NCBI GenBank assembly: GCA_905178155.1
Contig: CAJINV010000017.1
Coordinates: 984,722-1,048,721 of the forward strand
DNA from: Amoebophrya sp. A120
Lineage: Eukaryota > Protista > Dinoflagellata
Direction: 5' to 3'
Length of the DNA stretch: 64,000 nucleotides
Shown: one piece after another, positions 9,301 through 61,923 of the stretch
Layout of the letters: every line of letters begins with the position of its first letter
Position numbering within the stretch: position 1 is the first letter of the stretch
Position numbers and translations under genes: made by a program
The notes under the pieces: generated by a model
The model's input: the letters and a program-made list of their open reading frames with translations, nothing else
What the model was told of the DNA's origin: nothing
Database searches by the model: none

Positions 9301-12300
9301 CAGAAGGGGAAGCCCGCCGCAACTGGAGGAGAAAACGATGGCGCAGAAGATCATCGCGAAGCCGATCATCTCACGAATATGATGGACGTGCAAGAAGTGG
9401 AGCAGGATCTAGATGACCATAGGGAGCAAGACCATGACGTCGGAGAAAAGAATGAAACAACGGGTGCGGACCACGCCACGGCTCTCGCGCCAGACGAGGT
9501 ACAGAATCAGGCGGGCAAGAAGGGCGGAAATAAAGCACCAGCAGGTTGTCCTACGAAGATCATGGGCAAGAAAGTTATCAGCGCAAAGCTCGACAGCCTG
9601 GCTCTAGGAAAAATTGCGAAGCAAAACTCTAACTCTTCGTCTACTTCTAGTTCAAAAAGGGCTGCCGCTGCAAAAAAGATGAGTAGCAGTAAGAAGCAGG
9701 CTGCGAAAGCAGTGGTAAAAAGTGGTGCAAAAAAGCAAGAAACAAAGAAGCAGGCACAGATCGACCAAAAAGAAGAAGAAGACCCTCCTGCTGCGGAGCC
9801 ATTACAACAAAATGAAAAGAAAAAGAAAAAGAACTGTGGACCAGCATTCCCCACAGTTTTCGTTGAAGGCCTTGACAGCAAAATCATGATCGACCGTTGC
9901 GACTGCGCCGACGCCGATGGGGTCGTGCAGGCTACGATTTTGAAGGCAGCCATCGAGCCGTTTCGCTTTCACACGGAAGAGTACACGACCGTCGCGCCAA
10001 GAAAAGGACAACACAAGGGCAAAACACGCACATTCACCAAAGCAACGTTAGACTTCGAGCACTTCCGCAATTACAACAAGTTCCAATCTTGCTTAAAACA
10101 CGCCAGAGTATTTCTCGAAGAGCACGTGGAAGTGGAAAAGTTGGAAATTGATCGTGCGACCGGGGTGATCTTTGGGTTTTCTATTACGGGTAGGAAAATT
10201 GGCCCGGCCCGACAGCTCCACAGCAACTACCAGCTGTGGAAGAGAACGAATCGAGCAGGCTCGGGGAAGCTCGCAAAAAACAAAAAGGACCAAGAAGAAA
10301 ACGGGAATAAAGCGGGAGCTGCTGGTAGCAAAGTGTCAGAAAGCAACAAGGAGGAACAGAAAGGTCTCGATCGTGGTCATGAACAAGAGCCGAAGAACGA
10401 CGGAAATGATCCAGACATCGAAATGAGCAACGATTTCGACCATCTACAACAAGAAGGAGAAGAACTGAAGGCGAAGAAAAAGGCTTTGAATTTGAAGCCA
10501 CGAAAAATAAAAGAGAGCAACTTCAACAAGCAGAACCAGAAGCTGAAGCTTCGCTACAGGATGAAACGCTTCCAAGGCCCGTACATGCGTGCAAAAGAGA
10601 AATTCGAAGGGGATCCAGGCCAGCACTTCGAACCCTGCGGCCACTCCAAGACGAACCACAGTCATCCTCTGGAAGAAATGCTCGACTGCATCTTTTTACT
10701 CGGGGCTGACGAGAGGGTAGAAGATTTCCAGAATGAGTTCCTTGACTTTCCGAACTTTTTCAGAACAAAAACCCGGGCTACGTTGGGAGACATGCAACGG
10801 ACCGGGGTGGATTTAAGGTGTCTCGCTAGGCCGGATACCTGGGAAGGGCCGGGGTTCGATAGAGGTCCGGTTAGCCATCAGGTCGTTGGCACCACCAGCC
10901 AGCAAATTTTGGGTGACTCGCGGCAGAACAAGAAGATCATGACGACAACGGATAGAGACAAGGACGTTCTGTCAGCGATCCAGGAAGAGCGGAGTAAGGA
11001 AGAATATGAACTGTTTGGGTCGCCGATCCCTCCAAGAAGACCTACAAGTTTTACATCCACCAACAAGAACTTTCCCAACGGAAGTAACGATATGATCGGG
11101 GGCAAGGATACGAAGGAAGCGGGGGCGACGCGATTCAGGCCCGAAAACGCCGAAGATGGTCAGGACCGCACGCCGCGGGACAGAGAAAAGAATGAATTGC
11201 AGCAGAGTGATCCGGTATCTGGATTTGCTTTTTTCAGGATCATCTACTCACAAGAACAGCAGCTGCAATTTCATGTCTTTTTAAATGCGCATTTGCTGCT
11301 ATAATTCTTTGGCTACGATCGCGAAAGTTTTTTTTTGGGTTTGAAACCAACACCAATGGAATGTGTCCGAACGAATACGTTTTTTTTTTGAAATGAATCA
11401 GATTGCTTTCGAGCTTTTCCTTATCGACTGTGACGACCTGCGGCTTCGGACGATCCAATTCTACAACTACCCACTCCGGCCAGATATGCAACTTGACATC
11501 CACATGCACATTGTGGCATGATGAAATAAGATTTCGAGGCAATCCGCGTCAATGCAAATTTTCTGCAGCTGCGGCTGCAACTGCGGGTGATGCATGAGTG
11601 CAACTACTTGTGATCGTAGGTAAGTAGATCCTACCTAGAACTACATCGACTTCTCTTTATGGCGGGATTTTTTTGATGCGCAACTGCACAGAGCCAGCAG
11701 AGGCTAGGTCATGGCATTGGCTTGTTGCAAGAAACTGTTTATTATTTCCCGCGCCACCCACAACTTGTCATGTTTTCGTTTTCCATCGATTCCCCCCGAG
11801 CTCTTCAAAGGAAAACTTCTCGGCGCAGCGACGCACGGGCCCGAGCTCGACTACGTTCTCGCTGCGGACGGGGATGGGGTAGACGCCGCAGGCATCGGCA
11901 ACAGTCCGGGACCGGGAAAAGAGGAACCTATGGATGTGTCAGAGTTGAAATCGACAAAGTTGAAATAATTTGTCGTGCATAAAATGCATGACCCGAGGCA
12001 CGTGCGTTGCAGAGCAGGCAAGTGGGGCCGATGAGTTTGGACGTGCCCGGGGATGATGGTGATGGCTTCGGTCCGCTTGACTCCGCGACCTGGTGGCCGA
12101 ACCACGTGCGGTTCGGTGCCCTTACGGGTTGTGTAGTGGTTTCGGTCGGTTTAGCATTACAAATTATTTCAACTTTGACGATTTCAAACCTGACGCTTCC
12201 ATAGAACCTGGCAGCTTCTTAGACGATTCCGAAAACGAGATGGATATTGACGCAAATCCAAATGCGAAGAACAAAAAGAACGACAAGAAAAGTACAGAGG

Positions 12301-39500: not shown

Positions 39501-42500
39501 TCGGCGGAGCACTACCTCGGACAGGCGGAATATGGGAGTGTCAGAGTTGAAATCGACAAAGTTGAAATAGCTTGTAATGCATAAAATGGATACCAGTTGC
39601 AAGCCCAATTTGTAAGCGGCGCATGACAAATTTCGCAACCGTATAAATCCAGTTTGTCATGCTGTTTTGGCACAGAAGACTGCTTTTGTCATGCTCCTTT
39701 AGCAGCTCTTTCCCAAACCCTAAATAGGCTCACAATCTGCCTCACTTGCCATCCCGGCAAGACAGGCACTTCATGCCTTGCAGTTTCTGCATGAGAAATT
39801 ATTTCAACTTTGTCGATTTCAATCCTGACGCTTCCATACGGAAACGGACAATCTGATGTTTTACGACCCCTTATCCTGAGTAAAAACGTACCCACACCAT
39901 AGTTGTCATGCAAATCTGCATGCTTAAAATGTTTCTCATGCGGAGCCCCATGAGAAGCATTTTCTAATGGTGTTTTGAAACTTGTCATGCTCCAATCAGC
40001 ATGAGAGACTAGATCTGTAATGCTGCTGAACTAGCTCAAACAGCACTACACTACGCGTCCAAATTTGTCATGCGAAACAGCCAAAGCTTGTGGATTTGTC
40101 TAGCCGATTCCCCATTTTGACTATGGGGTGGGTACGTTTTTACATAGGATACCCCTCGTCCGAGTACCACCCGGGTAGCCTGCAGCACCAGCTGTCCGGG
40201 GGCAATAGCGATAACTTCCACGACGCTGCTGGAGGCAATAATAACGACCCAGAATCGACGGAGGAGAACCACGTGGGCAATACCGTCCTTGACCGGTTCT
40301 GCGAAAACCTCCAGAATTCCGTATTGCATCGAATAATCTTCCCTCCCCATTATATTGAAAACGCATCCGTCTGAGCACTTGTGATGCAGATTTGTGACCA
40401 CAAATCGCGCCTGTCTTGCAGGAAGCCAAGTAGTGCAGGCTGTCCGCCGCCTTATGCAGGCGACTTGTAACGCAAACGCTGTAGGGACTAGTATGCACAG
40501 GGCAGCCGTCCACCATGCAGCTAGGTGCCTACACAAAAAGGCCCCTGCCTAGGCTTGTGATCTGCGTGCAGTTCTCTACTGCAAGACAAATCTGATTTGT
40601 GTACGCAACTCCAGCGTCGCGTCGGATCTCCTTCTCGATATGGAGAAGGGGGAGCTTTCCTTTTGATATTCCGCGGTCACCGGACGCGCCCCTCCGGGCC
40701 TGAACCTAGACACTGCCGGGATCAAGTCCTCTACGTCTGAGGAAGAGGAACAAGAGGATCCGCACACGCTGCAAGTTCTAAACATGTTCGGGGACTTTGG
40801 AGGCGGCGTTAGTACAACAACTACCGCAGGCGCAAACAAGAACAAAAGTGGAAACAAGAATAAGGATAGCACCGCTTCCGGTGTCAGCAGAGCTTCGAAA
40901 GACCACCAGAAGAAAGCGAAGAAGCAGAAGCTGTACGATCAACAGTCCGAATTATCGAAGTCGTCTTATGGCACGATGAGTGATGAAAGGGAAAACACCG
41001 TGTCGAAAGCCGTTCCGTCGTTCCTAAACTCCATCACGGGCGGCTCGTATATTGGCGGGACCGCTACAAACTCCAAAAATAAGGTGAAGAAGCAAGAAAG
41101 CACGAGTTTGGTGACTGCGCTCCTGCAAGCCGAAGAGGAAGACGCGGATTTGAGCCCGATATGCATGAGAGCAAAAGTATCGTACTAGTACCAATTGCAT
41201 CCATTTTTTTTTTTTTTTAGGTGAAAAATTCGAAGAGGACTCTTGTCAGCAGGACTTCCGAAGAGGACTTTTGTCACAGAGGACCTTCCGAAGGACGTTT
41301 GTCAGCAGGACTGAACTACCACTTCTAGTGCGATACTTTTTCAATGTATACCCCAGCTCGAGCGACAATGAGAACAATGATGAAAAGGACAACTATCTAT
41401 CGTCAGATGTTAACAAATTGTCCGACGAGGACGCACTATCCAGCTCAGATGACGACGAAGATAACACCTACAAACATTCCAACCGGAGTTCCGTTCGGGG
41501 GCGGGGTGCTGGAGTCCACAACAACTTTCGAGGTGGAGGTGGACATCTACGTGGGGACACCAGAAACAACATCAACAGCTACCGAGATGTTGGGTCGTAC
41601 AACTATGGGGAGTTAGAAGATACCGTCGACCCCCGAGATTTGGTGGACGACACGCGCGTCCGGAGGAGACTTTCTCGTCGCGAAAGCGACGAGTGGTGCG
41701 GGGCCGACGGAAGTAGAAGTGGAAATCAACAGCAGAACAGCAATAGTAGAAATAACGGTGTACTGCCAAAAAGTTCCCCGACCACGACCGGAGGCACGAA
41801 CAATAACAAGTCCTCTCGGGGGTCGAAAAGAGAAAATCTAAATCAGCGAGATAGCCATAATGCGAAGTCTCTGCTGATGCAACTCGAGCAGTCAGGGACA
41901 AACAACGGTAGGAAGGCGTATGGCTCGAACTCCGGAAAAAAGGAGCGAGGCGGGTACAACAATCATGGCGGGGGTATCAGCGCAGGAGCCTTCGGAGGTA
42001 ATATAGCGGATAATCTTCACTACGGTCCTGGCTCTTCCCCTCTCGAAGACGGCTCGTCGTACGCTGCTCCCCATCAACGTCACGGGAATATTAACAACCG
42101 ACCGGGATACGAACTGAACTACGACTATGAGAACAATAACTACGACAACGAGCAGGAGCTAAACAATTACAACTACAATCCGAACAAGCTTTCTGGTGTG
42201 AAGAAGCACACCTCCGCGAAGGGCATGAATAACAATAATAAACAGGGTACTACTAGGGGCAGCACTAACAACAGCAATAAACCCAACAACTCCTATAATA
42301 ACTGGGAGGAGCAGTCGCAGGCCTCCTCTGCGTTTTCAGGAAATCGAAACAACAAGATGCAGCACCGAGGCGGAAACGGCAACGCGGCGGGAGGTGGTCC
42401 TCTGCAAGAAATGAATAACTTCGAAGAGTCCAACTGGGCTCGGGAATCCGTGGACCGAGAAATGCAGGACTGGATGACGCAAAACAACCTTCAGCATCTC

Positions 42501-45233
42501 CGGAACGCAGCCGCAACCGGATCGGTGTCCGCCTCCGCCGCTGCGGCAGCGGCCGCAGTGGTAGTAGGACAAGACTACGCGTTTCCCAGTACGGCAGAGA
42601 TGCCGTTTTTCACCTACGCTGACGCAATCAAGGAGAAGCAGCGCGCAGCGGAAGCGGCTGGGGAGAAACCGAAGCTGGTGATTGCTCCCGCACCGAGCAG
42701 TAGTAGTGCTAACAACGCTCCTCCTGTTTCGGCGGTAGGTCAGGTGGCTCCTGCGAAGTCCGGACCTCCCACCCGGGCGCCGCCGAAGCAGCAGGCAGCA
42801 GCTGGGGTGGTTACAACCACTTCCTCGTCTGGTGCCGTCGGGCCCCCTTCCCGACTTGCACCCCCGCCGGCGATTTCGCCGCCAACCGCGGAGAATGTTC
42901 CCAGTTTGAGCGGACTTCCAGTTGTGAAGCAAACGTCGAAAACCGCCGTGATTATGTCTACCACCTCCGGCGCAAGCTCCTCCGGCTCCGCAAGTTACGA
43001 GGAGGTGGCCATCGGGTCTGCGCACGCGAGCGCGCAACAGAAACTGGAGAAAAAACAGATTATCTTGGAGGACGGCCGGGTGCTCGACACGCTGGAGGTG
43101 ATATCAGAGTGCACAAGAACCTATCTATGATTCCCCGTCGTGTCTGTCGTCCCGCATTTTTTGTCATGCAAAAATGCGAATGAATCGGAATCCTGTGCCT
43201 GTCTGGCTGTGGGCCTTTCGGCCATGCTTGCATATGCGGGACAAGTTCTGAAGGAGGCACTCCAAGGCCAAACTGCAGTAATACAACATTTTGGGCATGG
43301 ATTGGTAATGCAAGGGCAGTACTTATTTTCTTGAGATGGTTTCTGTTGCTAGAAATTCAAATTATTTAAGTATGCACTTCAAGAATAATAAATGAGTGGG
43401 ACGCTGCTGGCACCATGACCGGGGAACAAGTTAGTTGTTGTGCACCCTCATAGTTGATGCGAAGCCAGGCGACTGCGACCTACGCGGACATCGAGCTAGA
43501 GGCACTTACCAGTGCGGCGTTTGTGGAACAGGAGCAGAAACGAATGAAAGAGCAGCACCAGCAGAACGGAGGAGCTGCAGCTTCGACGAGTAAAAGTACG
43601 AATAACAAAAATGGCGATCATAAAAAGAACCCGAACACATCAGGATCATCATCGACATCAACTGCAAATAAAGCCACGAGTAAAAAAGAAGAGGTAATGA
43701 ACGACGCCCGGGGCGGCGGGTCCTCTCCGTCTCTGCTGGGCCAGCTGATTTCGGAACAAGAGAACATCGAGGAAGAATCCACTGCGCACCTAGAGCGGGA
43801 ACTCAACATGGCCCTCCCTTTACCTCCGTCCCGGAGCCAGATGCTCGACGTGTACCAAGCAAAAAAGTAAGTGTTGACGGTAACGGTTTTGCTTTTGAGG
43901 TACTTATTGCAGACATGCATGACAAATTTTCGCTATCATGCATGCTATGCAATACAAATTTAGGCATGATAATATTTCTCGTGCATTTCTGCATGCCAAA
44001 TTCCGTGAACGCTCTAGCACTTTTTGGTGTGATAATGTGATCCGCGAGAACAAGGTTGAGGTCGCACCACCGATGGATTTGTCGCGGTTTCTGCACGACC
44101 CGGTGCAGCTCTACGGACGCAGCAACGCCTACCAAAAGAAGTTAGATCAATACGGACCGGATTACAGCAGCTACTGTCGAGTGGAGTTGTTTCGCGCCAA
44201 AAATAACGACCGCGAAGGCCCGGCTTCCTCGAAGGAAACTACCACTGCAAAGGAGATGTTGAAGCAGACAGTCGGGAAGCAGACAGGCAAAACTAGATCA
44301 GTCGGAGGCAGCACCAGAGGTGCAGCAGCACCACAGGTTGAGGACGGCTCGGGCTCCGGCCCTCCAAGCGAAACCGGATCGCGGAAACCCAGCACCGAGA
44401 GCGCTTTACGTGGTGGAAATACAGCTGCGAACGGCAAGAACTCTACTTCTTCTGCGGCGATGCTACGACGTGGCGATAAGAAGCTCTCGAATACTAGTGG
44501 TAAAACGAATAGTAGTACCGGCATCAACTCATCGTCGGAACAACGACCGCAGTCGATCAGTAGTATCCAAGGCACAACATCAAGCCTCGTATTCATATGA
44601 GATGCTGTCTTGCATGACAAAAGATCCACTCAGTCTACTCAAGTAGGCAAATCACCACTGCAAAAAATAAATCCGCTTTTTACCACGACCTTGACGTCGA
44701 ACATTATTTCGATCTTCAGGCAGCATCTCATACGAGTGCGACAGTAATGATTTTGTAGAAATGCATAAGCAAGAAAGAAGAACGAAAGATGAAACAGAAG
44801 GAAAGGGACCTGCAGATCGCAGATAATCGGGTGGCATTGGAGAAGAGCTCCTTGCTCACGCTCGCCATTCGGTTTTTCCTCGAGAAGCCGCCGCAATGGT
44901 TTTGGCCCTTCGTGTATCGAGGAGAAAAACTGAGACGTCAGTGTACTATGTGTCTCGGAGTCGTGCCAGGAGCGTGTTGCCAATAAATTTGGTCTGCACG
45001 ACGACTTTGACAGAGGAAGCCTGTTATGCGCAGCCAGTATGTGAAAGCACATATGAAATAGATGAGGATGTTGTCGTCCATGGCTTGCCCGCAATACAAG
45101 TGTATAATACGTTGCGTTCTCTCCTGCATGACAGACCACTTACACCTAGCGTCAGTTTTTTCCTTGGATATCGTTCTGGGGATTTTGTTGTGCTACATCC
45201 TCAGCGAGCCGGGAGAAGATGAACCGGATATGA
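36560..45233 (+). CDS. Large multi-exon N/G/S-rich protein with PAM2-like motifs and a possible dsRBD-like N-terminal fold; may be two genes split at TGA 40664-40666
   Basis: In-frame joins across GT-AG introns (36737-37604, 39193-39439, 44589-44758, 44937-45204) and TIR introns (37685, 39531, 39872, 41160, 43102). Motifs AREFHP, AQPFYP, AQPFIP and AVGFGKTKMDVQTAARLAL. Introns near 38211-38404, 40321-40612 and 43867-44054 have unresolved, apparently non-canonical borders. Confidence 0.6.
36743..37385. mobile_element. PIF/Harbinger-like MITE (643 bp) in an intron
   Basis: 86-bp TIR starting GAACGGGGTCACAAA with 3 mismatches (36743-36828, 37300-37385). TAA target duplication at 36740-36742 and 37386-37388. 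Further inner inverted repeats. Confidence 0.88.
37685..37793. mobile_element. TIR intron family B, also enclosed by an in-frame GT-AG pair (37683-37802)
   Basis: 20-bp perfect TIR TATCCAGGAAAAAACACCCA / TGGGTGTTTTTTCCTGGATA. Flanks CAGGT and CGTGT are diverged. Confidence 0.85.
39531..39838. mobile_element. TIR intron family A
   Basis: TATGGGAGTGTCAGAGTTGAAATCGACAAAGTTGAAATA / TATTTCAACTTTGTCGATTTCAATCCTGACGCTTCCATA. Direct repeat CGGAA at 39526-39530 and 39839-39843. Confidence 0.92.
39872..40151. mobile_element. TIR intron family B2
   Basis: 31-bp TIR TATCCTGAGTAAAAACGTACCCACACCATAG with 3 mismatches. Direct repeat CCCCT at 39867-39871 and 40152-40156. Interior resembles the 51630 copy. 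Confidence 0.9.
41160..41350. mobile_element. TIR intron family E
   Basis: TATGCAT...AAAAGTATCGTACTAG / CTAGTGCGATACTTTT...ATGTATA. Flanks CCCGA and CCCCA. Removal gives DLSP|SSSDNEN in frame. Confidence 0.8.
41231..41312. repeat. Three imperfect tandem copies of a ~28-bp unit inside the 41160 element
   Basis: CGAAGAGGACTCTTGTCAGCAGGACTTC, CGAAGAGGACTTTTGTCACAGAGGACCTTC, CGAAGGACGTTTGTCAGCAGGACT. Confidence 0.75.
43102..43452. mobile_element. TIR intron family F, with a GT-AG register at 43098-43453
   Basis: TATCAGAGTGCACAAGAAC / GTTGTTGTGCACCCTCATA (16 of 19). Flanks GGTGA and GTTGA. Frame restored (TLE|LMRSQ). Confidence 0.82.
44587..44741. repeat. Inverted-repeat pair, probably a decayed introner, within GT-AG intron 44589-44758
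   Basis: TCGTATTCATATGAGATGCTG pairs with CAGCATCTCATACGAGTGCGA. GCATGACAAA at 44612. No clear direct repeat. Confidence 0.6.
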
Positions 45234-48200
45234 GATGAGTGCACAACCGCTACTTCACCTTGTACCCCTCACTTCCATTTCCTTTTTTCATGGGCAGTCA
45301 ATTAATATCCAGCCGCATTCAACAAGAGGCACAACTGTCTGCATGACAAATTTCAGATCATGAAGCGGCCCACACACAAGTAGAACTACAGCGCGGAGCA
45401 GACACTTGTCTTCATTCACAGGGTCCATTACTTATTTCATCACTACTCTTGCCGCTATTCCACCTATTGCTGTAGTTGGTGTTGATGTTCATGCCTTTTC
45501 TTTTAAAATGAGTACTAGCGGGGGATGTCGAAGTTTGCGCTCGCATAATTTCGGAGACGAGAGATGTTGTAAGACAGGGCAGCTGGAGAAAATATAACTG
45601 ATGTGGAAGAAAGTCAATGTGTACGAAACGGGAACAGGAAAAGGTACTTACGACCTACACGGCTCTCAGCACTTTTTCCTTCGTCCATATCAAAGTGGTT
45701 CCTCGTTGAATCGATCTGCACGAGTTTCAGTTTGGATTTTTCGCGCTGCGTACCTCAATTTATGTTGAAGGACTATGACTATGACACAATAACTGTAGTT
45801 GCAACAATTTTTACCTGCAAACTGAAACTATCGCGACTTCATCTACTACTAGGTGCTGGTGACGTAACCCGCCAAAGCAGAGCATCCCGCCCTGCTTCCC
45901 GACCTACAGTTGTATTGTTTGTTGCAGTTGTTGTGCTGGCTGCTCTCGCACTAACATCATCGGATCGAGGACTGCGTCGACCTGTATTCTTTTGGACAGT
46001 TTGTGTTTGATCATGAAATTGGAGATGCTACAGTGGCAGCGCGAAGATTCACTGCTGCCTAAGTACCTTCTCCTCCAGATGATGAACTACAAGAAATGGC
46101 AAGAACTAGCACCGGTACGTGCGAGCAGATGGAAGACCGACGTCGAAAAATAATTGATTTCTTTAGGTGTTGTAAAAAAGAAATACTACTCGTGAAACTA
46201 CGGGACACGACTCTGTGGTCTCAGTAATATGATCAGCACATCACAAGATGTTGCCCTTGCCTTAATACAAAGTTTACACATTTTTTCGATTCAGTCATTC
46301 GTTCCTGCTACAAATCATGAGTCTTCATTATTTCGCTCGACTTGTAGTTCCAGCTTCATCTCGACGACGGCGATAGGCAAAACACCTGTTGCTTGTTGAC
46401 ACGATTGTTGCTCCAGCAGCCTCTGCTGCAAAAATCAGATCGGGATATCATACGGCCGGAAGAAGAGCATCATTTTCCTCGTCACAGCGTGATGTAACTT
46501 CAACAAACCTCCACAGTTATATCGCACTCCTGAGCTTCTACAACATCTGGGTTTTTTCCTTTTCTTCACTGAGCTTTCAAATATGTCAGCGATGAACTAG
46601 AATTACAGTCGACTTTTTCATACTTTTTTCTTGCCCGACGTACTACTAGGTAGCTTGCTAGAACTCACACTTTTGTGATGAAGCTCGGAGAGCCTTGTCG
46701 TACTAGTTTGAATGACGCTGTCGTACGGCCGCCTCTCCTTCAACAGAAAAGAACACACGCTTTGCAAAAACTGGTGCCGCAGTCTACTTTGTACGGCAGT
46801 GGACTACTAGCAGCGAGAGGAAAAACAAGCCACGACACGTTGATGAATCATCTGCGAAATGGAGGGAAAGAAAAATTTGCAGGAAACGAAAAAAACGCCT
46901 CTGCAGCTTCTATCTTCGTGCGATCGACGCAAGATCGTTTTATGATACAGCGATATGCTGGTGCTGCAACTGCACTCTACCTATCTAATGCACAATTCAT
47001 TGTACGGCCCAAGAGGAGCCAACAGGCTCGTCCTTTTGCCACGGCTTTGTTGAAATTTCAACTCTGTTTTACTCTTGCTTTTCTACCAATTGCCTGCTTC
47101 TCGCTTTCTCAATTTTTTTCTCGCAAAATTATTTCGCTACACAAAATTCCATCTTTAGTGTATTTTCCATTTTCATCAACGCAACTTTTCAATTCAAATA
47201 ACCCAATCGACGTTTTAACTCAGTCGCATCGTCAAAGACGCTCATTGGTGCGTTAGATGGATGGTGGTTAGCTTTGATATTTGTTCTGGCAAAAGCGTAT
47301 ATTTTACATCTAGAATGCAGCTACGGCTGATATGTAGACAAAGTAGGAAGCAGCTGCATTCTGTTCAGTCTTCACAATTTGATTACAAAAAACAACCGTA
47401 CTTTAGATTTGGCAATAGTGGTGCAGCGCTAGTATCTTCTAGTGAGAGCTACCGCTCATCTTACACAAGTGGAAAATGATCACTCTCCTCGACGGTATCG
47501 AAGTAGCAACTTTCCACTTGACACTTCGCTATATAGTTTACTTTTGGAAGAAATAGATCGAAGTGGAAGATCTGCGGGCTGTGCCTCATCTCAAGAGATC
47601 TTGTTTCACGCCGTCCGTGGTGCCTTTTTGCCACCCTTTCGAACAACAAGTGCGCGAGGATTTTTTTCGAAGAAGATCCAGCGGAAAGCACTTTATTTGT
47701 TTATCTTTTTACTGCGTTCGCGATCTGTTTCTTTTCCGTGCTCACGTGGTATGCATGTTCTTTTGCTTTTTGATGAAGTGGTAGACTGCAGCTGCCGCGA
47801 TCATACGTGGAGCTTCTATATCTTCGCTTCATTGATGCACCACTTCGACTTCCGATCTAATCGTGGTTTTGATTTCTGTGCATTTTTACGGACGGGGGTT
47901 AAAGTCGATGCAGCGACAGCGTATTAACGTTGACGACATCCCCTCGCTTCGTTCAAGAATTATGTTGGCGTCCAGTTCGTCCTCGTCGGCCTGCGTTGAA
48001 CTATTTTTTGTATTGCAAGAAGAGGAAGATAGTGTAGCCACACCAAGACCAAATACAATTTCAAACCAACGCCTTAGAGGAAGGAGTATCGTGCACCGGT
48101 GCTGCTGCTGGTTTCGGTTCGTTCCAACCGTTTCGAGACTAGCTACATGCATCGATATTAGGCTTGGGCGCAGCTCGGTAGTTCTACGTTGTTTTCAATC

Positions 48201-48352
48201 CTACTTCCGGTTCCGAGGTGGTTCTTCAAAACTACGATCTGTCTCATTAAGTAGATCTATTTAAATATTTTTATCACCTTGCGCTTGCCGATCCGTCTCC
48301 GTCGTTAACACCTTCTTTCTTAAAAGCAAGAAGCTCTCGTCGCAAAATCATC

Positions 48353-49458
48353 ATGGCTTCAACATCCGGAGGCAGATCGGGCGACGGTCGTGTGGCTTCA
48401 TCACCGGCGAGGTGCAGGAAAGAACTTCTTGAGAAAAAAGCATCTTTGCTCGGCCGTTTGCTGGATTGGTATAACCGCATGCTCGAGACCTACCCCTACG
48501 AAGCCAACGCCTACTCCACCGCGATTATCGGGGCTTTCGCAGACTTTCTCAGGCAGCTTTTGGTCTTTTACTTGGAGCAACGGAAAAATAGACGCACAAG
48601 TGCTCGTCCCGGTGTTGTTGCCGGCGCCGCTCCTGGCGGTGCCTCTTTCACATCTTCTGCGGCGACCCCAGGGGGCGGTCCGGCGGCGGGTGCAAAAATG
48701 CAACTATCAAATGTAAAAGTGTCTGGGTCTGGAAGAGTGCATGTTTGTCACGCTTGTCTGGCATGACTCTTAAATCTGTCACGCACGTTACCCAAGAGCG
48801 CCACTTTTTTGCCATGCAGAGACGCAGTTTGTCATGCAGAACCTAGAAGCTCAGAAACTTCTCATGCTGAGCCAGCACTTGTAGCCTCCTCATGATACGC
48901 CACCCAGCATCACAAGTTTCCAGACCCAGACACTTTTGCACTTGATAGCAACTACTCGCACACGAATTCTGGCAAAAGTTGGAGTTGAAATCCATTCTTG
49001 AGCAGTATCTCCTTGGCTTCGCGGTTTTGCACCCCGTTTGCTACTGGTTTTTCGAAAAGATCGAGGCCGTGTTTCACCCACCATCAACAGAAATCACTGA
49101 TAATGATAAACATAACGAAGTCCTCAGCAGCACGCGGAACAACAGCAAGAAGACCCCGACCCAGGAATTTTGGACTGCGTTTCAGAAGGTTTCCGTGGAA
49201 GAGCTGATCTTCGCCCCTGTTTTTAACCTGGTGTTTCTGACCTGTGAGGATGTGCTGCGAAGGAAATCCGTCGCGGAGGCCGTTCTGAGTTACTTCCGGA
49301 AATTCAAGCAATTGCAGCTGACAAACATGGCATTTTGGTACCCGACGAACATGGTGAACTTCTACGTTGTGCCACCGAAAAGTAGAATGCTTTTTGCCAA
49401 CTTGATGAATATCCTGTGGATGGTGTATCTCAGTATGAAAAGCAAGCAGGAAGGTTGA
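48353..49458 (+). CDS. Mpv17/PMP22 family membrane protein; exons 48353-48704, 48953-49458
   Basis: WYNRMLETYPYEANAYSTAIIGAFADFLRQ and KVSVEELIFAPVF...FWYPTNMVNFYVVPPKSRMLFANLMNILWMVYLS match the family pattern. Joined in frame across the TIR intron. Confidence 0.88.
48705..48947. mobile_element. TIR intron family C
   Basis: 30-bp TIR TATCAAATGTAAAAGTGTCTGGGTCTGGAA with 2 mismatches. Direct repeat GCAAC at 48700-48704 and 48948-48952. Highly similar along its length to 61028-61279. Confidence 0.93.
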
Positions 49459-50445
49459 GCAGGACTGCTACGTTTTATTTTTGTCGCTACTTTTTCAGAG
49501 AAAAACCAAAACGTAAAACAACCAACGAACTCAAAGTCAGAATCACGGCGGTCTGGATAGATTCGTGATCGTGTTCGAAGTACAGCGATGCAACATAAGT
49601 ACACCAGACCCAGAACCAAACTAACCCGCCGCGTCCAGTGCACGGAAATAGAGGTGTGCCGTGCTGGCTGTTACTGTTTGTTTGCATTGCATAATCGCTC
49701 CTGTCGTCCGACTCCGACCTCGATGCTACTCTTGATATTCTCGGAAAAAGAAAATTGCTCGGTTTAGTAGATGAGAATAGCTCCTAGTACGCGAGGACAC
49801 GTGTAGAAGTTGAGTTGCTAAAGGAGTGATCGAAGGTTTCCTCTGTAAGTGATAGATTGAACGCAGAGCGAGTTGGAAATGTACCAAGAGAGACACTATG
49901 AGACAGTCGTGGCAGGAGAGCTGAGCGAGTATGAAGACGAGGAGAGGCACGAAAACGAACTGTGACTCGTAAGCTGGAAAGGTGGACCTTTAAGAGGATG
50001 CATTTGATGTGTCACACGTCGACGTGTGCCACACGTCGACTCGCTTAAATCTTGATCGCACATCTTCGACAGGTTGTAATTGCAGCATGCACGACAACGT
50101 ATTTGCTTGTTTTTCCCTCGCATGATTCAACATACGAGTCGCAAAAAAAACAAATTCTACTTGTTCTCTGTAAGATAGTAGCGGCTATGCTGGCATCATG
50201 TGCAAGCACGCCCTCGACTTCTTGGAGTCGAGTAACATCCTCGAGTAGAAACCTTGTTGATCTTGATCCCTTGATATACTTGCCTTCACCCGAACTTGGA
50301 AGAAGAGCACCACGATAGGCCATGTGATACCACCCCGGTCGTGAATTATATCGTTCTAGGCTAGGTATAAGTATGTGATTCAACCTCCGAATTGTTGTTC
50401 CTTCCTAGTGTTGCGTAGAATTTTTGTTCAACAGCTGTCTTGAAA

Positions 50446-53189
50446 ATGACCGACGCAGGGTGGGAGCTGATCGATGACGAGAAAGTCATCGCTCTGCGGA
50501 ACGAACTGAAAAGCCTCAAGGACCAGCTAGAGGTACAGCTCATTTTTACTTTTTGTTCTGGATAGATAAAGATTTCTTGTCTACCCAGGCAGTAGGACCA
50601 CGAGAGAAGAAAAATATTTATATTTGCAGGTGGACGTCGACCTCGACCCTTTCTCGCTCATTCGTTCTTGTCGTTGCTAGCTCATTTTCCCCCAATAAAC
50701 TTTAACTTTTGTTTTTTTTGACACAAGGACACTAAAGCTCCTCGACGTCCGACAGGAGCATGCATCATGTATGATATGCATATGGAAAAAAGATCTAAAT
50801 CCGAAATAGTAATAGTGAATGCCCGCAAAATTGTGTTGAATCAACTATCAGGCGGAGAAACAAAAGACATTGGATACCGCGGCCCGATTTGAGCGCGAAG
50901 CCGTAGAGGCTGCCAACGAGCATGGCAAGAAGCTGGAGGCGCAGCGGTCGGAGGTGGACTCCTGGCGGCAACGATTGGATGAGGAAAAAACCGCGAGAAA
51001 GGAGCGGGAACTGATGCTGCACGAGCAGCTAAGTAACGAGAAGAAGCAGCTAGAGACCGCGCTGAAGGAAAAGCAAAAACTCGCCGAAGAATGCGCAAAC
51101 CTGAAAACAGTGCACGAGGTACAAGAAGAAGACTTGATTGTGATGTTGTTGTTGAGGAACAATCAAATCATCTTATCTAGTGTTTAATATGTTCTTTCAA
51201 CAGTTATCATGTAAGTATGACAGGTTTGTAAGTACAACAGTACGCAGCTGTTGAACTACGTTCATCATGTTGCACAAAAATGTCTCTACTACTTGTCGTG
51301 ATGGGCCCCACTTGGCTTTCATCGTGTAACTCCGCATCGAGGAGCGCGACGCACGAGAAGCGTCCTCCGTTTTGTTGCCCACCTCGGAAGTGATTCTTGA
51401 TCATTTATACTGCATCAGGCCGAGTCCAAGAACGCCTTGGCAGCCACGGAGAACCAGCAGAAGCATTTTCACAGCATGTTGGACCAGGAGCGCGCCTCCG
51501 CTGCCGCGTCCATTCGCGACATTGTCGAGAAGCAGCAGAAGCAGGAGCAACAGGCGAGCCGGGAGTTTGCCAATCAGCTGGACGAGTTGAAAAAGCAGCT
51601 CCAGGAGGAGAAGAAGCAGTCCGAACAGATATCCTGAGTAAAAACATCTCCACCCCGGAGCTGTCATGCAGATTTGCAATTGCAGGAAGATTTGTAATGC
51701 GCACCCCCATGAGAGGCATTTCCAGTCGTGTTTTTGGAATTTCTGATGCTGCAAACAGGATGGGTAGATGGGTTTGTGATGCGGCTGCACTTGCTAGACT
51801 GCACTACAATGCAGAGAGGAACAAACTTGTCATGCGTGACTCCCAAAGCTTCTGGATTTGTGTTGCGAGAAGATCCCCATCTTGACTCTGGCGTGGGGAC
51901 GTTTTTAGACAGGATAACAGAAGCTGCAGGAGGAAAAGACCAAGGCGCACGAAGCCAAGCGGAACTGGCACAAGACCGCGGAAATCGAGAAGCGCACCTT
52001 CGAACTGGAGAAGCGAAAAGCCTCCGACGAGCTGGAGAAGGTGAAGCAGCAGCTGGCGCAGGCGGAGCGCGAGAAGTCGATGCTGGAGCAGGCGAAGCGG
52101 TTAGACGAGGAGAAAAAGCAGGAGCAGGTGCAGTTCTACGTGAAAAAGAACGAGGTGATGGAGCAAGAAGTGCAGAACTTCAAGCAAGAGGCGGTGACCA
52201 GCAGGAAGGAGCGGGACGCCTTCGAAAACGCGGTGGGCAATCTGAAGAACGAGCGCGACCAGCTGAAAAACTCGGCCGCCGGGATTGAGGCGGAGTTGAA
52301 GCAGTGCCGGGAAACGCTGAAGTCTCTGGAAGCGAGCAACGCGATGCTCAAGTCTAGTTGTTTTTAAACACTTTTTCTATGAGTAGACTACGAACGTAGT
52401 AACACTTATTTGTTCTTTTTCGTATCAGACTGAGACTGAGGCCATCCGCCATCAAGCCTTGCTGTATTGATTGTATTTTCACCGTGCATGATTTTTACAC
52501 TCAATACCAATATTACGAGTGCCACCACTACTAGCCACCCATGACAGACAGACGATCTAACCTGAGTCAACATTTCTATGCACCATCAAAGAAACCCCAA
52601 ACTCCTATTTCAGATGCTCCGCAAGCTCTTCGGAGGAAGCAACGAAGCAGTTGGAAAAGGAACTCGAGAAGAAAGCGATGGACGGGTCCCAATTGCACAC
52701 CGAAAACCAACAGCTGAAGCACCAAATCGAGGAGCTGAACCGGTCCATAAACGCGTCGAACCAGCAGAACGAGGCGATTGAGAGGGATAACAAGCAAACG
52801 CTCGAGAAGATGCAAAAAGCGGTGGAGGAGCTGACCGCCGAAAAGAAAAAGATCGAACACGAACGCGACGAGGTCAAGACGAATTACGTGGAGTTGTATC
52901 CACAAAAAAACACCCATCCCCATAACATTCCACCAATCTGTCATCTTCGTGCAAAACATGCTGTATCAAATTCAAATCTCGCACTAGCCATGCAGAAAAT
53001 GAATGGGAGTATGGGTGTTTTTTGCTGGATAAGTTGGTGGAGACCACCAAGAGGTCGCTGGAGGCCGAAAACACGAAACTGCGGTCGGAGAAGGAGGAAC
53101 TGAGTCAGGAGATGTCGCAGCTAAAGACGGAAATGCAGGCACAGCAGAACGAGCTGGACATGTATCGGAAACTACGGGAGATGGACTGA
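50446..53189 (+). CDS. Long coiled-coil protein; exons 50446-50532, 50852-51118, 51419-51629, 51922-52351, 52614-52896, 53037-53189
   Basis: Continuous E/K/Q/L heptad-rich frame from MTDAGWELIDDEKV to MYRKLREMD* after removing three GT-AG introns and two TIR introns. Confidence 0.82.
51630..51916. mobile_element. TIR intron family B2
   Basis: TATCCTGAGTAAAAAC / GTTTTTAGACAGGATA. Direct repeat ACAGA at 51625-51629 and 51917-51921. Frame restored (SEQ|KLQEEK). Confidence 0.9.
52897..53031. mobile_element. TIR intron family B, reverse orientation
   Basis: TATCCACAAAAAAACACCCAT / ATGGGTGTTTTTTGCTGGATA. Direct repeat AGTTG at 52892-52896 and 53032-53036. Frame restored (YVEL|VETTKR). Confidence 0.9.
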
Positions 53190-55837: not shown

Positions 55838-58726
55838 ATGACACTCTGGATCCTGCAGAATGTGGTCCTCTTCCGCAGTCCGTACGAGCGGGTTTTCATC
55901 GCCCCCCGGGCTTCCGCCGGCTACTGCGTCTGGCTCGCGTGCACGATTGCGATACTGCTCTTGCCAATTTTTCTCGCTTATCAACTGGTACAAACATGTA
56001 GCTCATCTCCCTCTCAGCGGCAGTGTGAGAAAAAAAATTTTTTTCATGAGAAGCCATAGTCAAGAACATCTTGTTCCCGCGACAACAAAGTCGTGGTGAT
56101 TATGGACCTTGCAGCTGCACTGCTGGTTCGTCATGGTCATGTTGTATGAAGAAGACACACAAAGTCAAAGGCAATGACAAAGTTTTGTTCGCGAACGGCA
56201 TCGATCCATATAAATATCTCGCACACGACTTGGTCGCCGTGAGTGTGACACGCGAACCTCTGAGGACTACATGTTTGCAGTGGATATCGTTTACGCTTCC
56301 GGGGGACTGTGGATAAAAGAGGCGTTTTACAGGGAGCAGCCGTACTTTGATGGTTATTCTCTGTCCTTTTTAAAACTTGCTTTAAAAGAGCAACTTGCTC
56401 GTGCTGTAGCTGTACTATGGAAGTGCTTGTTTTGTGGATAATTTCGTCATCAATGTCAGCAAGTGCACCGTGTTGTGATGTGCTGCAAGTGTGAGATTCC
56501 ACGATGCCACAGCACTTCCAATTGACAACAAAACGTGAACATCAGTGTTGTCCGATTCAACCACGACATGGTCGTTGCCGTCCAGGGAGACAATACCGCC
56601 GGTTTTTGGAGCACTATCCCATGAAAAATCACTCTAGGAGGAGGAGCACATGATCCACCTGTATCACTCTCCCAACCGGAATTCTAAGATTTGTAATGCG
56701 AAGACGGACCACGACCCTGCACCGCGCGCAAGTGCGCCACGATCTGTGCCTTCTTGCGTTTTATTTTCCGTTATGCATGTACTCAAATGGACCCTTAGCA
56801 TCGGAGCGTAAGTGCTACTCCTAGACTCGAGAGTGGTTTTGCATAGCATACGTACGGACGTGAAGCTAAACGAATTGAATGCGAACTCCGTGAAAGTGCC
56901 AGCTGTCAGGTACTTAAGTCGCTTCACCGTCTTCTTTGTTGCTCGTGAAGTGGTAAAGCGACGAGCAATTTGCTTTTGCATTTGTATCTTCTACGAAACA
57001 CATAGATGAAGAAAGTGAATCGTCAAATGATCTACAGCGCGTACTTCTGCATCATTTCATCAGGTGATAATTTCTGTCCTTCACCATTCAACGCAGGTAT
57101 CAAGAGCTCGACAAGGACGTAGACGGAATACCCGACGAGCTGATAGTGAAGGTCTCGATGCCCGTTGCAGAGCCAGCAAAGCGAGTGCTGTTTCTGGGCG
57201 CGTTTCGATACCAGTTATCCGGAACCGTAAAAATGAACATGAAGGGCCTCTTAGCCTGCGACGAGTCAAGCGGGCTGGGAGCGTCAGGTATGAAGATAGA
57301 GATAGTATCGATGATGTGATGGACGCCGGGCGGCAGGGGCTCAGCTGCTTTTCCAGGACCATCTTCTTCGTGACCACGTTACTTTCACGTCAGTCTGTGC
57401 AAGCAAAAAACTGTACATAGCTGCAATTTCTTTTTCTATTTCTTGCTGTGACATTGATATTGATTCGACGCGCTGAAGAAACCTCGATGACGAGAGATGA
57501 TCTTTCTCTGCGCAGAAATTGTTTTCTTCCGAAATTGGTTTGTCCAGGTGTCACACTGCAGGGCAGTGTCGAGCTTAGTCAAGCAGAGGCTCTGCGTAGT
57601 TTATCGGAGCCACGAACAAAATACATCGCGAGTCCCCTGGCCTGGAGCTGGGAAAGCAGCACCGCCTACACCAAGCTTGACCCCTTCACGTTCCCCGCGT
57701 TACTAGAGCAGTACTCACAAAGGAATGAGACAATAAGGTAAAGCACATTTTTATAATCTGTTTTCACCAGAACAACATAGCCTGTTTCTAAAATGACCCG
57801 CTTTCGCGTTTCCTCAAAAGATGTACTCGTAGCTGTCTACTTTTAGAGATGACAACTTGAAGCGTAAACTACTTTCGTCTACTTTGGCTTCATCGGCAGG
57901 CTCCGCCCCGACCTCCCAGCGGTCTGGAGCTACCAACCTTCGAACACCTTTGATCTCGAATATCATCCAGAAAAAGATGTCTACGAGAGTCGCACGTTGC
58001 CTAGGTCGAAATCGATGCATGTGCCGCGCGCTAATATTACTGGAGAGTCATTCCGGTTACGACGCAAACTTGATTTGTATTGCCAGATTTTTTTCAGTAC
58101 TTGGATTTGTGGTCGTATGTCTTATTGTAGAACGAAAAGGTGGAGTGACAACTTGCTAGTAGGGATTGCGATTGCCCCCCTAACTCGACTTCGTGCGACC
58201 ACTACGAGCATTATTTTTCCGTACCATGTTGCAATGAGGGCCCAGATACCGAAGCAAGTCGTGTACTACACGCCCGTATCCAGAAAAAAAAAACCATCCC
58301 CATCCATTTTTAGCATGACAAACACTGCACTCTATGCAGGTTTTGCATGACAAATTGGATGTGGATGGGTGTTTTTTTCTGGATAGCCCGGGGCGCTGGA
58401 GGAGCTGAAGCACGGGTGGGTGCACATTGCCAGTTTCCTCTTCCCGGTGTACCTGCTGATCTATATGCATTGCAAAACTATCGCACTCGTACAAAAAATT
58501 CACATACTTTTTTTTTTCAAAAGGAAAAGGCCTTCAAATTGATGCTGCCCCAAATGTAGAAACTAGATTTGTCATAGAGCAGTACTGGTGAATTTCTAGG
58601 AGTGCGATACTTTTGCACTGGATAGCCTACGCCTTCCTGCGATTTCTGTACACCAATCAGATCGTGCAGACGTACTGCTGCACGCAACTTCCCTACGTAA
58701 ACTCGAAGGCGAGTGGTGGGGGATAG
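55838..58726 (+). CDS. TMEM231: TMEM231 ciliary transition-zone membrane protein, about 10 exons
   Basis: Collinear family motifs: LFRSPYERVF..LPIFLAY; GLWIKEAFYREQP|VVRFNH; FWST|DVKLNEL..VKVPAV; ELDKDVDGIPD; YSQRNET; VYYTP|GALEELKHGWVH; FLYTNQIV. Interrupted by GT-AG introns and four TIR introns. The intron near 58056-58238 is uncertain. Confidence 0.88.
55989..56279. mobile_element. Degenerate TIR intron family G
   Basis: TACAAACATGTAG / CTACATGTTTGCA. 4-nt flanks CTGG and GTGG. Removing 295 nt puts the TMEM231 GLWIK motif in frame. Confidence 0.65.
56615..56850. mobile_element. TIR intron family H
   Basis: TATCCCATGAAAAATCACTCT / AGAGTGGTTTTGCATAGCATA (17 of 21). Flanks AGCAC and CGTAC. 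Restores WST|DVKLN. Confidence 0.75.
58277..58385. mobile_element. TIR intron family B
   Basis: TATCCAGAAAAAAA..CCATCC / GGATGGGTGTTTTTTTCTGGATA. Direct repeat GCCCG at 58272-58276 and 58386-58390. Same length (109 bp) and similar interior to the 37685 copy. Confidence 0.92.
58464..58624. mobile_element. TIR intron family E
   Basis: TATGCATTGCAAAACTATCGCACTC / GAGTGCGATACTTTTGCACTGGATA (22 of 25). Flanks ATCTA and GCCTA. Restores LLIY|AFLRFLYTNQIV. Confidence 0.85.
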
Positions 58727-60025: not shown

Positions 60026-61923
60026 ATGTTCGGCGGCGGCGGCTTTTTCGACGATGACCCGTTTTTTGCCGATCCCTTCGGTGTAACAAATGCAAATATG
60101 TCTTGGTGGTCTGGACGAAATGGAAAAGCTGTCATCATGCTGAAGATAATTCTTTGATGATGTATTGCACAGAGACCACAGACGGAAAGAGGCAGCCACG
60201 TATGACACATGTTTTTGGAGGGGAGTAGAGCCGTGCTACGTAGTCATGCTCGTCGAGCGATGCTCTTTGCTATTGTGCGTCAGCAATGGTCCTCCCCGGT
60301 CTACAGCATACATCACAAACTCCTCAGTGTTAGCCATGCCATATAAGCATTGCAGAAAATCTTGGATTCTTCCAGACGATGATCCAGAGGGCAGAGACAA
60401 GTTTGCAATGCATACCGTCGCCAGGCAGGCTCGCAACAGCAGCCACACCCACGTGACAGTAGGGGCGGCAGAAGCTCGCAGAATCAGCAGCAGCTCGCGA
60501 GGCCACGGTAGCACTTGCTGCATTGGTTCTTCTAGTTGCATGCTACTCGTGTTTTTATGCGGTCCTGGTGTTGTACATCATTTTCATCAAGTACACAACT
60601 GCAATGGAGATGTAGTAGCTCTATAATATTACAGTTTTTTTCGATTAAAACCAAAGAACACTCCACCATAACATGCAGGGACCCTTTCGCCGCTATGGAG
60701 CAGCGGATGTCGCAGATGATGGGAGGCGGCGGCATGATGATGCCCAGCGGCGGGGGGTTTGGTATGTTTGGCGGAGATCCGTTTGGCGATATGCAGAGTT
60801 CTTCCATGTCAAGTATGATCTCGAGCAGTCGTGGTGGTGGCGGAGGCGGTTCTTTCTCGTCCTCGAGCACGATGGTTTACTCCTCGAAAATGGGTCCGGA
60901 CGGAAAAATGCACACGGAGCGATTTTCCTCCAGTGCAGTGCGGGACGGGCAGCGAGACGCGTTCGAGCAGCAGCAAGCGTATTCCAACTCTTCCACGGGC
61001 GTGGACAAAATGTCAATGGAGCGGCAATATCAACTGCAAAAATGTCTGGGTCTGGAAGAATGCACGTTTGTCATGCTTGTCTGGCATGACTCTTGAGTCT
61101 ATCATGCGCGTTACCCAAGAGCCCCACTTTTCTGTCATGCAGAAACGCAGTCTGTCGTGCAGAATAGGCAACATCTAGAAGCTCAGAAACTTTTCATGCT
61201 GCGCCAGCACTTGTGGCCTCCTCATGATACGCCACCCAGCATCACAAGTTTCCAGGCTGAGACATGTTTGCAATGCATAGGCAGCACCAGAATCGCGGGC
61301 GGAAAATGGTGAAGGAGTACAGCCACGCCACCGGCGAAGACCGGCAAACGGAATTTCTCCGCGGCCTGGAAGATCACGAAAAGAGTGCGTTTGACGCCCA
61401 GTGGCACCAGGAAGTAGCTCCGCACCTGCCACGACACGGCCGCATGTCGATGCCGGCGATGAGCGGTGGATCCGCACTGCCGCAAGGTACTCGTTTTTAC
61501 AGGCTTCATTTAAATTTTCTGCATGGAGGATGTTATTGTTGACGCTTTTCTTCACTTTGTGTTTGTGCCTTTCGTTCACATGTTGTTTCGACGAGCAGGT
61601 GAATTACCTGTGGTGGGGTTTCGATGTTCATCTGGAGTTGATGCTGAAGATGCTTCGACGAGACTACCACGCTTTGTATGTTGGTCTCTTGCAGCCGTTG
61701 ATCACTGAATCGCTGCACACTTAAGGCGATAGATCGCGCTGTCGCATCAAACTTGAAGTGGGTAGTGCAGCACTTTAGTACTTCTCGCATGATTTTGAAC
61801 GAACCAGGTCCGTCGTCGCGGTCCCTCCTTGGCGGCAACGGTGCTGGAGCACGGCGCTCTGAAAACGTCACCAGCAGTCGACGAGGCGGAGGTCGTGGAG
61901 GACCTGCCTTGGAATACAGGTGA
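60026..61923 (+). CDS. MLF: Myeloid leukemia factor (MLF) family protein; exons 60026-60080, 60429-60507, 60679-61023, 61281-61486, 61808-61923
   Basis: FDDDPFFADPF; SFSSSSTMVYSS; QQAYSNSSTGVDKMSMERQ|HQNRGRKMVKEYSHATGED...AFDAQW follow the MLF family pattern. Intron phases are consistent. Confidence 0.8.
60084..60414. mobile_element. Decayed family C-like TIR intron, also enclosed by in-frame GT-AG (60081-60428)
   Basis: TAACAAATGCAAATATGTCT / AGACAAGTTTGCAATGCATA. The right end resembles that of the 61028 copy. Flanks CGGTG and CCGTC. Confidence 0.55.
61028..61279. mobile_element. TIR intron family C, with a GC-AG register at 61024-61280
   Basis: Highly similar to 48705-48947. Flanks GGCAA and GGCAG. 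Removal restores the MLF domain. Confidence 0.9.

Follow-up and report, generated by a model that had tools for sequence, protein, structure and literature searches.

Hairpin-ended introns with five-base repeats in Amoebophrya sp. A120: removal from RNA and a probable common cut register

A stretch of 64,000 nucleotides from the dinoflagellate Amoebophrya sp. A120 (assembly GCA_905178155.1, contig CAJINV010000017.1, positions 984,722 to 1,048,721 of the forward strand; hereafter the window) contains 22 short elements with inverted terminal arms, 10 of them flanked by a perfect 5-bp direct repeat. Comparison with transcript contigs leaves us highly confident that such elements are removed from RNA together with 5 nt, and they are almost certainly the introners known from A120. 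The cut probably falls at one fixed place, one base before the initial TAT and four bases after the terminal ATA. The system itself, its TAT end, the 5-bp repeats and the non-canonical borders are already known (PMC7789003); the additions made here are a register that is probably fixed, a donor-like UA confined to one end and a family-wide TGTCATGC motif. An earlier note, made from the letters of the window, had stated that introners are reported from Amoebophrya, and PMC7789003 indeed gives both the TAT start and the 5-bp repeats.

Elements of the window and their removal from RNA

Assembled contigs of four sequencing runs were compared with positions 30601-50600, and 15 of 246 joints were listed. 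Contigs of run X6 connect 32548 directly with 32985, and 48699 directly with 48948, no letters being inserted, i.e. the element and one copy of its repeat are gone. Contigs of runs X3 and X6 also skip GT-AG introns and therefore behave as cDNA. An X6 contig over 41355-47806 comprises 4906 nt, and 4906 nt are predicted when the elements at 43102, 43853, 44564, 44915 and 45229 are each removed with 5 nt and one GT-AG intron is removed as well. Taken together, the RNA evidence consists of two directly observed joints, four ends of contigs and a single length sum. DNA contigs of run X1 (40579-43943 and 43974-48729) pass unbroken through the elements at 41160, 43102, 44564, 44915 and 45229 at a depth of 41-42, like that of the flanks; X1 may be the source of the genome assembly itself. 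Precise removal from RNA, as the earlier note had proposed, is thus borne out by transcript contigs that lack the element plus one repeat. Two contrary outcomes that it had envisaged are not seen: a GT-AG register available at 43102 is left unused, and the DNA contigs keep five elements.

The elements were located by a scan for TAT...ATA inverted arms, by reading frames, by RNA contig ends and by annotated protein. TAT stands at both ends (TAT...ATA) in 20 of the 22, the exceptions being a TAC start at 43853 and an ATG end at 57961-58228. Pairs combining a perfect repeat with an arm score of at least 5 number 9 in the window vs. 0-1 per shuffle (10 shuffles). Removal of the element plus 5 nt gives an open frame at all 20 elements tested, and retention gives none at 19 of these 20; at 30810 a frame stays open, yet only one that is not that of the gene. 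The elements at 40322 and 57961, which lie outside this test, were checked through the models of the long host gene and of TMEM231. The nine perfect repeats noticed earlier (GAACC, CGGAA twice, ACCAC, CCCCT, GCAAC, ACAGA, AGTTG and GCCCG) are all where they had been placed, restoration of the frame by removing element and repeat holds, including the PPPDE and TMEM231 matches, and there are several families as described; the count of about 17 elements was too low.

The elements are listed below with the upstream and downstream copies of the 5-bp repeat and with no strand assigned. The register n is the number of bases of the upstream copy that are kept in the exon; joints are reported leftmost, a convention confirmed with two GT-AG introns and with two perfect repeats.

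11929..12203, element, GAACC/GAACC; lies early in a very long coding exon; arms of the 30810/32554/39531 family
30810..31118, element, CGGAA/CGGAA; in the 5' part of the PPPDE gene
32554..32984, element, ACCAC/ACCAC; directly ahead of the PPPDE domain; 32549-32984 skipped exactly in an X6 contig
37685..37793, element, diverged CAGGT/CGTGT; placed by sequence and frame
39531..39838, element, CGGAA/CGGAA
39872..40151, element, CCCCT/CCCCT; 33 nt past the preceding element
40322..40668, element with decayed arms, perfect TTCCG/TTCCG; not among the nine noticed earlier
41160..41350, element, CCCGA/CCCCA; RNA contig end permits registers 4-5
43102..43452, element, GGTGA/GTTGA; RNA permits registers 2-6
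43853..44034, element with TAC start, ACGTG/ATGTG; RNA permits registers 2-5
44564..44767, old element, AGTAG/AGCAA; RNA permits registers 3-4 only; G at the presumed +1
44915..45170, element, TCGTG/TCGTT; removal judged from the nucleotide total of the transcript contig
45229..45547, old element with its repeat lost, CCGGA/ATTTC; contig nucleotide total fits removal of the element plus 5 nt
48705..48947, element from a family with very many copies, GCAAC/GCAAC; within the Mpv17/PMP22 gene; 48700-48947 skipped exactly in an X6 contig
51630..51916, element, ACAGA/ACAGA; in the coiled-coil gene; 74% like 39872
52897..53031, element, AGTTG/AGTTG; in the coiled-coil gene
55979..56286, element in TMEM231, TCGCT/TCGTT; protein needs register at least 4 (Ala, common to the A25 orthologue)
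56615..56850, element in TMEM231, AGCAC/CGTAC; register at least 1
57961..58228, element in TMEM231 with ATG end, TCGAA/TTGCA; registers 4-5 (Glu, common to A25)
58277..58385, element in TMEM231, GCCCG/GCCCG; 84% like 37685; any register fits
58464..58624, element in TMEM231, ATCTA/GCCTA; register at least 2 (Ile, common to A25)
61028..61279, element, GGCAA/GGCAG; in the MLF-like gene; 86% like 48705; GC-AG in register 1; placed by sequence and frame

Cut register and the signal at the ends

A perfect repeat hides the position of the cut, and diverged repeats are therefore needed to place the register. RNA contig ends limit it at 41160, 43102, 43853 and 44564, most narrowly at the last (3-4), and the annotated A120 TMEM231 protein (P0001, NCBI) limits it at 55979, 56615, 57961 and 58464 and admits any register at 58277. 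Register 4 alone is compatible with all 11 junctions examined, giving an intron of the form N-TAT...ATA-NNNN, and we consider it probable that the cut is fixed there.

Since RNA permits registers 2-6 at 43102, the GT-AG intron of the same length that register 1 would offer there is not used. Canonical registers (GT-AG, GC-AG or AT-AC) are available at two elements with imperfect repeats, 43102 (GT-AG) and 61028 (GC-AG), both in register 1, and at none of the nine named perfect-repeat elements in any of the six registers of each. The earlier note had stressed the latter point; it is true, yet unremarkable (probability 0.35), because 139 of 156 oriented elements listed from metagenome contigs also lack a canonical register, the remaining 17 of 156 having one. 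Such a lack is to be expected where targets are random. This metagenome set comes from a scan for arm motifs (at least 144 loci listed, one assembly, 411 kb), may represent another strain, and is enriched for the family used as search motif; the metagenome counts below all refer to its listed elements. Orientation was assigned by codon score to 156 of the 220 elements with a repeat match of at least 3 and sufficient flank, and strand calls were concordant in 41 of 44 multi-element loci.

Without TAT as a requirement, 265 elements were recovered (0 in the shuffle): TAT stood at both ends in 244 of them, and 21 had a variant at one end. Of these 21, 19 could be oriented; the other 2, unoriented or conflicting, were left aside. 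Changes in the first two terminal bases occur once at the sense 5' end vs. 10 times at the 3' end, and third-base changes 6 times at the 5' end vs. twice at the 3' end (Fisher p=0.006 for the whole contrast). The sense 5' variants are TAC (4), TAG (2) and a second-base change (once), and the 3' variants affect the two outer bases (10) or the third base (2). The window variants TAC (43853) and ATG (57961) agree with this distribution (p=0.002 when they are included). Of the shared TAT/ATA signature that had been suggested from the window, a constraint on the 5' TA is supported; an equal, two-ended signature is not, as the 3' ATA varies more freely in its two outermost bases.

Window GT-AG introns begin GTA in 13 of 13 cases, followed by C, T or A (GTAC in 7 of 13), and have G at +5 in just 3 of 13; these introns were chosen by eye, seven being backed by P0001 or RNA. 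This unusual donor may reflect the reported absence of U1. In register 4, and only under that inferred register, the protected TA occupies intron positions +2/+3 and equals the host donor GUA(C/U/A) minus its G. The statement that the elements have no spliceosomal borders is thus not supported in the form the earlier note gave it, the 5' end in the best register being N-U-A-(U/C). According to Table S4 of PMC7789003, all 18 leading non-canonical border types have T at +2, and the nine leading types in strain A25 are all TT-NN. Together with the TTA repeats of A25, these TT-NN borders can also be read as N-U-A with a free 3' end.

Several candidate arguments were rejected. A seeming stop codon against register 4 at metagenome locus L024 was dismissed as the product of a wrong strand assignment. 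The notion that mismatches at repeat position 5 are only synonymous was given up (4/8), as was the direction of mutation within repeats as a register test, for which cases were too few. The A120 rows of Table S4 were not accepted as independent proof of the register, because T at +2 may stem from aligner preference. The motif GCATGACA was rejected as a branch site, being strand-symmetric (143 vs. 126) and missing from the sense strand in 69 of 156 elements.

Transposon character and host genes

The elements are MITE-like (resembling miniature inverted-repeat transposable elements), i.e. short, non-coding, with inverted ends, a constant 5-bp duplication, many copies and either orientation, in line with the origin proposed earlier. 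Within the window, 30810, 32554 and 39531 are 72-79% alike, 37685 and 58277 84%, 39872 and 51630 74%, and 48705 and 61028 86%. An exact 5-bp repeat flanks 214 of 311 metagenome elements, and a 4-bp or 6-bp repeat none. For element length plus 5, each reading frame is represented (93/86/71 of 250). Every family with more than 3 oriented matches has both insertion orientations, as judged with the first strand model, in which 52 of 152 elements could be assigned to a window family. Target composition equals flank composition at all five duplicated positions (p>=0.24, n=123), and insertion at AG|G proto-splice sites was rejected.

A is found at arm positions 11-14 in 124-148 of 156 oriented elements. 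The elements, 65.8 kb in all, contain 447 occurrences of TGTCATGC or its complement vs. 3 in 29.5 kb of flanks. The motif is present in 214 of 246 elements, mostly 41-43 nt inward from either end and with no strand bias. Its position and strand symmetry suit a transposase binding site common to the families, and the repeats near both ends are putative binding sites of a transposase acting in trans. The 5-bp duplication and T-N-T ends recall, in our view, integrase-type transposases. The long, transposase-coding copies suggested in the earlier note were not encountered: none of the 144 metagenome loci listed holds a long element with a coding frame, and no transposase family was detected among the 100 of 528 long frames scanned there. 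A seeming 1280-bp element with a 409-aa frame at L011 proved to be an SNF2 exon between two facing elements, with no transposase. A search for the arm motif in viral contigs gave no match.

Core genes are found at the arm-motif loci L061, L011, L026 and L044 (RNA polymerase Rpb1, SNF2 helicase, KIN17 and TRIP4), where elements adjoin or separate exons. Run X12 (2026 RNA, same species label) contains 92 reads of the arm 48705-48736 joined to other exon-like sequence, which places a related TAT family in a further isolate; the run contains nothing from the window beyond this arm and hence gives no splicing information.

Two host genes were modelled:

55838..58723, + strand, TMEM231 host gene with five elements and four GT-AG introns
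38402..45620, + strand, part of a long host gene of unassigned function; 1489 open codons once nine elements and one GT-AG intron are removed

All 322 residues of P0001 map to 55838..58723, with the queried exon 100% identical, and the A25 orthologue shows 80% identity on the query exon in protein comparison. Profile searches assign the gene to TM231 (PF10149; best exon E 1.5e-5) and the PPPDE gene to PF05903 (E 7e-22). Further element-bearing genes are Mpv17/PMP22, one with a weak MLF-like match and a coiled-coil gene. Protein searches with the long host gene at 38402..45620 gave no match. A GT-AG intron at 45644-45852 lies in the 3' untranslated region, and its contig extends to 47806. The distribution of elements is uneven, with none found between 12.2 and 30.8 kb and 21 in 30.8-61.3 kb; a single open frame of about 4400 codons at 12210-25490 is free of introns and elements.

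The right arm of 32554 holds about 85 nt of unrelated sequence (32863-32945), yet RNA skips the element exactly. The old element 44564-44767 has an inner inverted repeat with 24-nt arms nested at 44587-44741. Around 37685, a GT two bases before the element (37683) and an AG nine bases after it (37802) form a possible canonical alternative, and, judged from sequence, 37683-37802 could be a non-canonical intron in the course of becoming canonical. Elements of another kind lie at 28244-29739 and 36743-37385, with arms of 99 and 130 nt, ends GAGCGGGGTCACAAA / GAACGGGGTCACAAA and 3-bp duplications (TTA and TAA), both inside host introns that start with GT. By these hallmarks we take them to be PIF/Harbinger-like; no transposase-like frame was seen in the longer one, 28244-29739. 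Within 36743-37385 is nested a pair of TAT...ATA arms without 5-bp repeats (36925-37196).

Proposed mechanism, alternatives and known systems

We lean slightly towards a spliceosomal chemistry of removal, and rate as evenly balanced the narrower proposal, which is our leading reading, that a relaxed host spliceosome removes the elements at a fixed register with a measured 3' cut. The spliceosome would read N-U-A as donor, with the T and A of TAT at +2/+3; donor recognition is suggested because TA is kept on the sense strand and equals the host GUA minus G. The terminal G+1/G-1 pair that normally defines GT-AG introns would have been dropped. Since no dinucleotide is preferred at the 3' end, the 3' cut would be measured from the terminal AUA, four bases on. 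The inverted arms would help by bringing the ends together and making either orientation spliceable. More speculatively, the A that opens the terminal AUA (position -7) might serve as branch point. U+2 contacts U6, and some protists fuse the branch point and the 3' site. In its fullest form, the proposal is a spliceosome lacking U1 that reads only U+2/A+3, disregards G+1 as well as the 3' AG, takes the A that opens the terminal AUA as branch point and places the 3' cut by measuring six bases from it, with an N|UA rule covering most 'signature-free' introns, A25 with its TTA ends included; this combination is tentative and rather doubtful as a whole. If it is true, any TAT...ATA transposon with a 5-bp duplication would be a ready-made seamless intron in either orientation.

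Several points weigh against this account. Only 44564 excludes register 5, and G precedes TAT there, possibly a special case. The spliceosome normally needs the terminal G+1/G-1 pair (10.1101/2025.08.15.670264), whereas G at +1 is not preferred (36 of 123 metagenome elements) and neither is a 3' AG (15 of 156). No covariation between +1 and -1 is evident in the metagenome elements, whose arm positions 4-16 show neither a 5'/3' asymmetry nor G at +5. The proposed branch A shows 2 changes vs. 6, too thin to count as conservation. The asymmetry test at the ends is post hoc and small, takes its strands from the codon score and draws on a family-enriched sample. The RNA contigs come from two samples of one study and are labelled RNA by guess, rare products are hidden in them, and the removals at 44564, 44915 and 45229 rest on one length sum rather than on visible joints.

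A route free of the spliceosome, in which the hairpin is recognised, endonuclease cleavage falls 1 nt ahead of the stem and 4 nt beyond it, and the exons are then sealed by a ligase such as RTCB, appears possible, if unlikely. It would suit the entire freedom of +1, -1 and -2 (no G at +1, no 3' AG), the unused GT-AG register at 43102, splicing in both orientations and the strong end-joining stems into which young elements fold (z -4 to -12). U1 was not found in Amoebophrya (PMC7789003), Euglena provides a precedent in a paired triplet with fixed spacers, N3-CDG...CH'G-N5-6 (PMC12501133), and in SOS splicing the pairing of inverted repeats alone can trigger excision (PMC12779559). Selection on pairing is nevertheless hard to see in the arms. 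Sense-strand mismatches comprise 91 G.U vs. 104 A.C (p=0.39), so that wobble selection was rejected; the terminal variants that keep a wobble pair (6) fail to outnumber those that break the pair (8); and the old elements 43853, 44564 and 45229, with a terminal pairing probability of 0.04-0.3, are all still removed. Strong RNA pairing as the guide to excision, as first suggested for the window, is on this indirect evidence not supported as stated. Moreover, the protected bases match the host donor, and SOS splicing is imprecise (PMC12779559) whereas these contigs have single clean joints.

Removal from RNA at a register other than a fixed 4, usually 5 (directly before TAT) or sliding between 4 and 5, with 4 used when a G gives a GU donor, has a low probability in our estimation. 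All but one (10 of 11) of the junctions examined also permit register 5, and the exception has G before TAT; the legend of Fig. 3 of PMC7789003 calls the splice sites variable relative to the hairpin, and borders are mixed within annotated families (PMC12130899 file 8, among the rows listed). Mixed annotated borders are, on the other hand, normal aligner output inside a perfect repeat, and register 4 agrees both with the A25 pattern and with the correspondence of UA to host +2/+3; no leading border type of Table S4 begins with TA, which is a weak point. Excision at the DNA level, either ciliate-like and programmed or in one life stage, or transcription from element-free alleles, is highly improbable. 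Its room lies in a DNA run that may be the assembly's own source and covers one stage only, and in the 15 of 246 joints listed. Against it stand the DNA contigs that traverse five elements at single-copy depth, the abundance of element sequence in transcript runs, a constraint specific to the transcribed strand and the published RNA support for A120 introns (PMC7789003).

A single register with a strand-specific N|UA donor would lead to exact predictions of cut sites, branch base and mutations, and a fixed register would permit consistent re-annotation of these genomes. If removal is spliceosomal, it would show how far the spliceosome can relax and yet stay precise; a spliceosome-free route would stand beside SOS splicing as its natural, precise counterpart. 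Either route would explain how a transposon family fills a third of a genome's genes without target choice. A literature search, with subscription papers mostly outside its coverage, found no paper on the cut register, lariats or donor signal of Amoebophrya.

The closest known system is that of the A120 introners themselves. Farhat 2021 (PMC7789003) reported that more than 60% of introns are non-canonical, with 66,565 RNA-supported introns in A120, 65% of them non-canonical, and 29,850 repeated introns in 1954 families. The inverted repeats of A120 start with TAT, with a run of A some seven bases on, and those of A25 with TTA; direct repeats measure 3-5 nt, or 5 bp in the legend of Fig. S19. 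That study found no clear splicing signature and variable splice positions, found nearly all spliceosomal proteins though not U1, argued against general mobilisation by transposase and did not decide how the introns are removed. In Gozashti et al. 2025 (PMC12130899) these families count as terminal inverted repeat (TIR) DNA elements without a known superfamily; their border models are inconsistent, and one integrase-like family (family 38) is noted. The window elements agree with these accounts in their TAT inverted repeats, short direct repeats, non-canonical borders, many families and lack of an internal transposase. Set against the account in PMC7789003, their repeats measure exactly 5 bp, a single register fits, UA at the 5' end is kept strand-specifically and the families are linked by a subterminal motif.

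Introns of Fritillaria borealis are likewise MITE-derived, with inverted repeats, a target duplication, non-GT-AG borders and precise removal (PMC11282704, 10.1101/2025.08.15.670264), and there the U2 spliceosome removes transposon-derived non-GT-AG introns (10.1101/2025.08.15.670264). The mechanism proposed above is akin to theirs. Their borders are mostly AG-AC/AG-AT, U1 is conserved and dependence on the spliceosome is shown, whereas A120 shows freedom at +1, -1 and -2, a search of its proteins is reported without U1, and spliceosome dependence is a proposal. SOS splicing (Zhao et al. 2025, PMC12779559) similarly cuts DNA transposons from mRNA at inverted repeats without GU-AG. It is, in contrast, imprecise, leaves indels, needs pairing, AKAP17A, CAAP1 and RTCB, and has been shown in animals; Amoebophrya is unmentioned in the available parts of that paper. 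Of the proteins needed, neither RTCB nor AKAP17A is named in the available supplement text of PMC7789003. Indels of this type are absent from the clean single joints in the contigs used here, though contigs drop rare forms. The nonconventional introns of euglenids share a paired terminal triplet with fixed unequal spacers (N3/N5-6 there, N1/N4 inferred here; PMC12501133), as well as direct repeats that blur the borders and a proposed MITE origin (PMC12501133, PMC11282704). They differ in their triplet (CDG/CH'G), the purine required after the intron, full-length circles and the lack of a donor-like UA, and the window elements, with their TAT/ATA ends, do not carry the euglenid signature N3-CDG...CH'G-N5-6|R.

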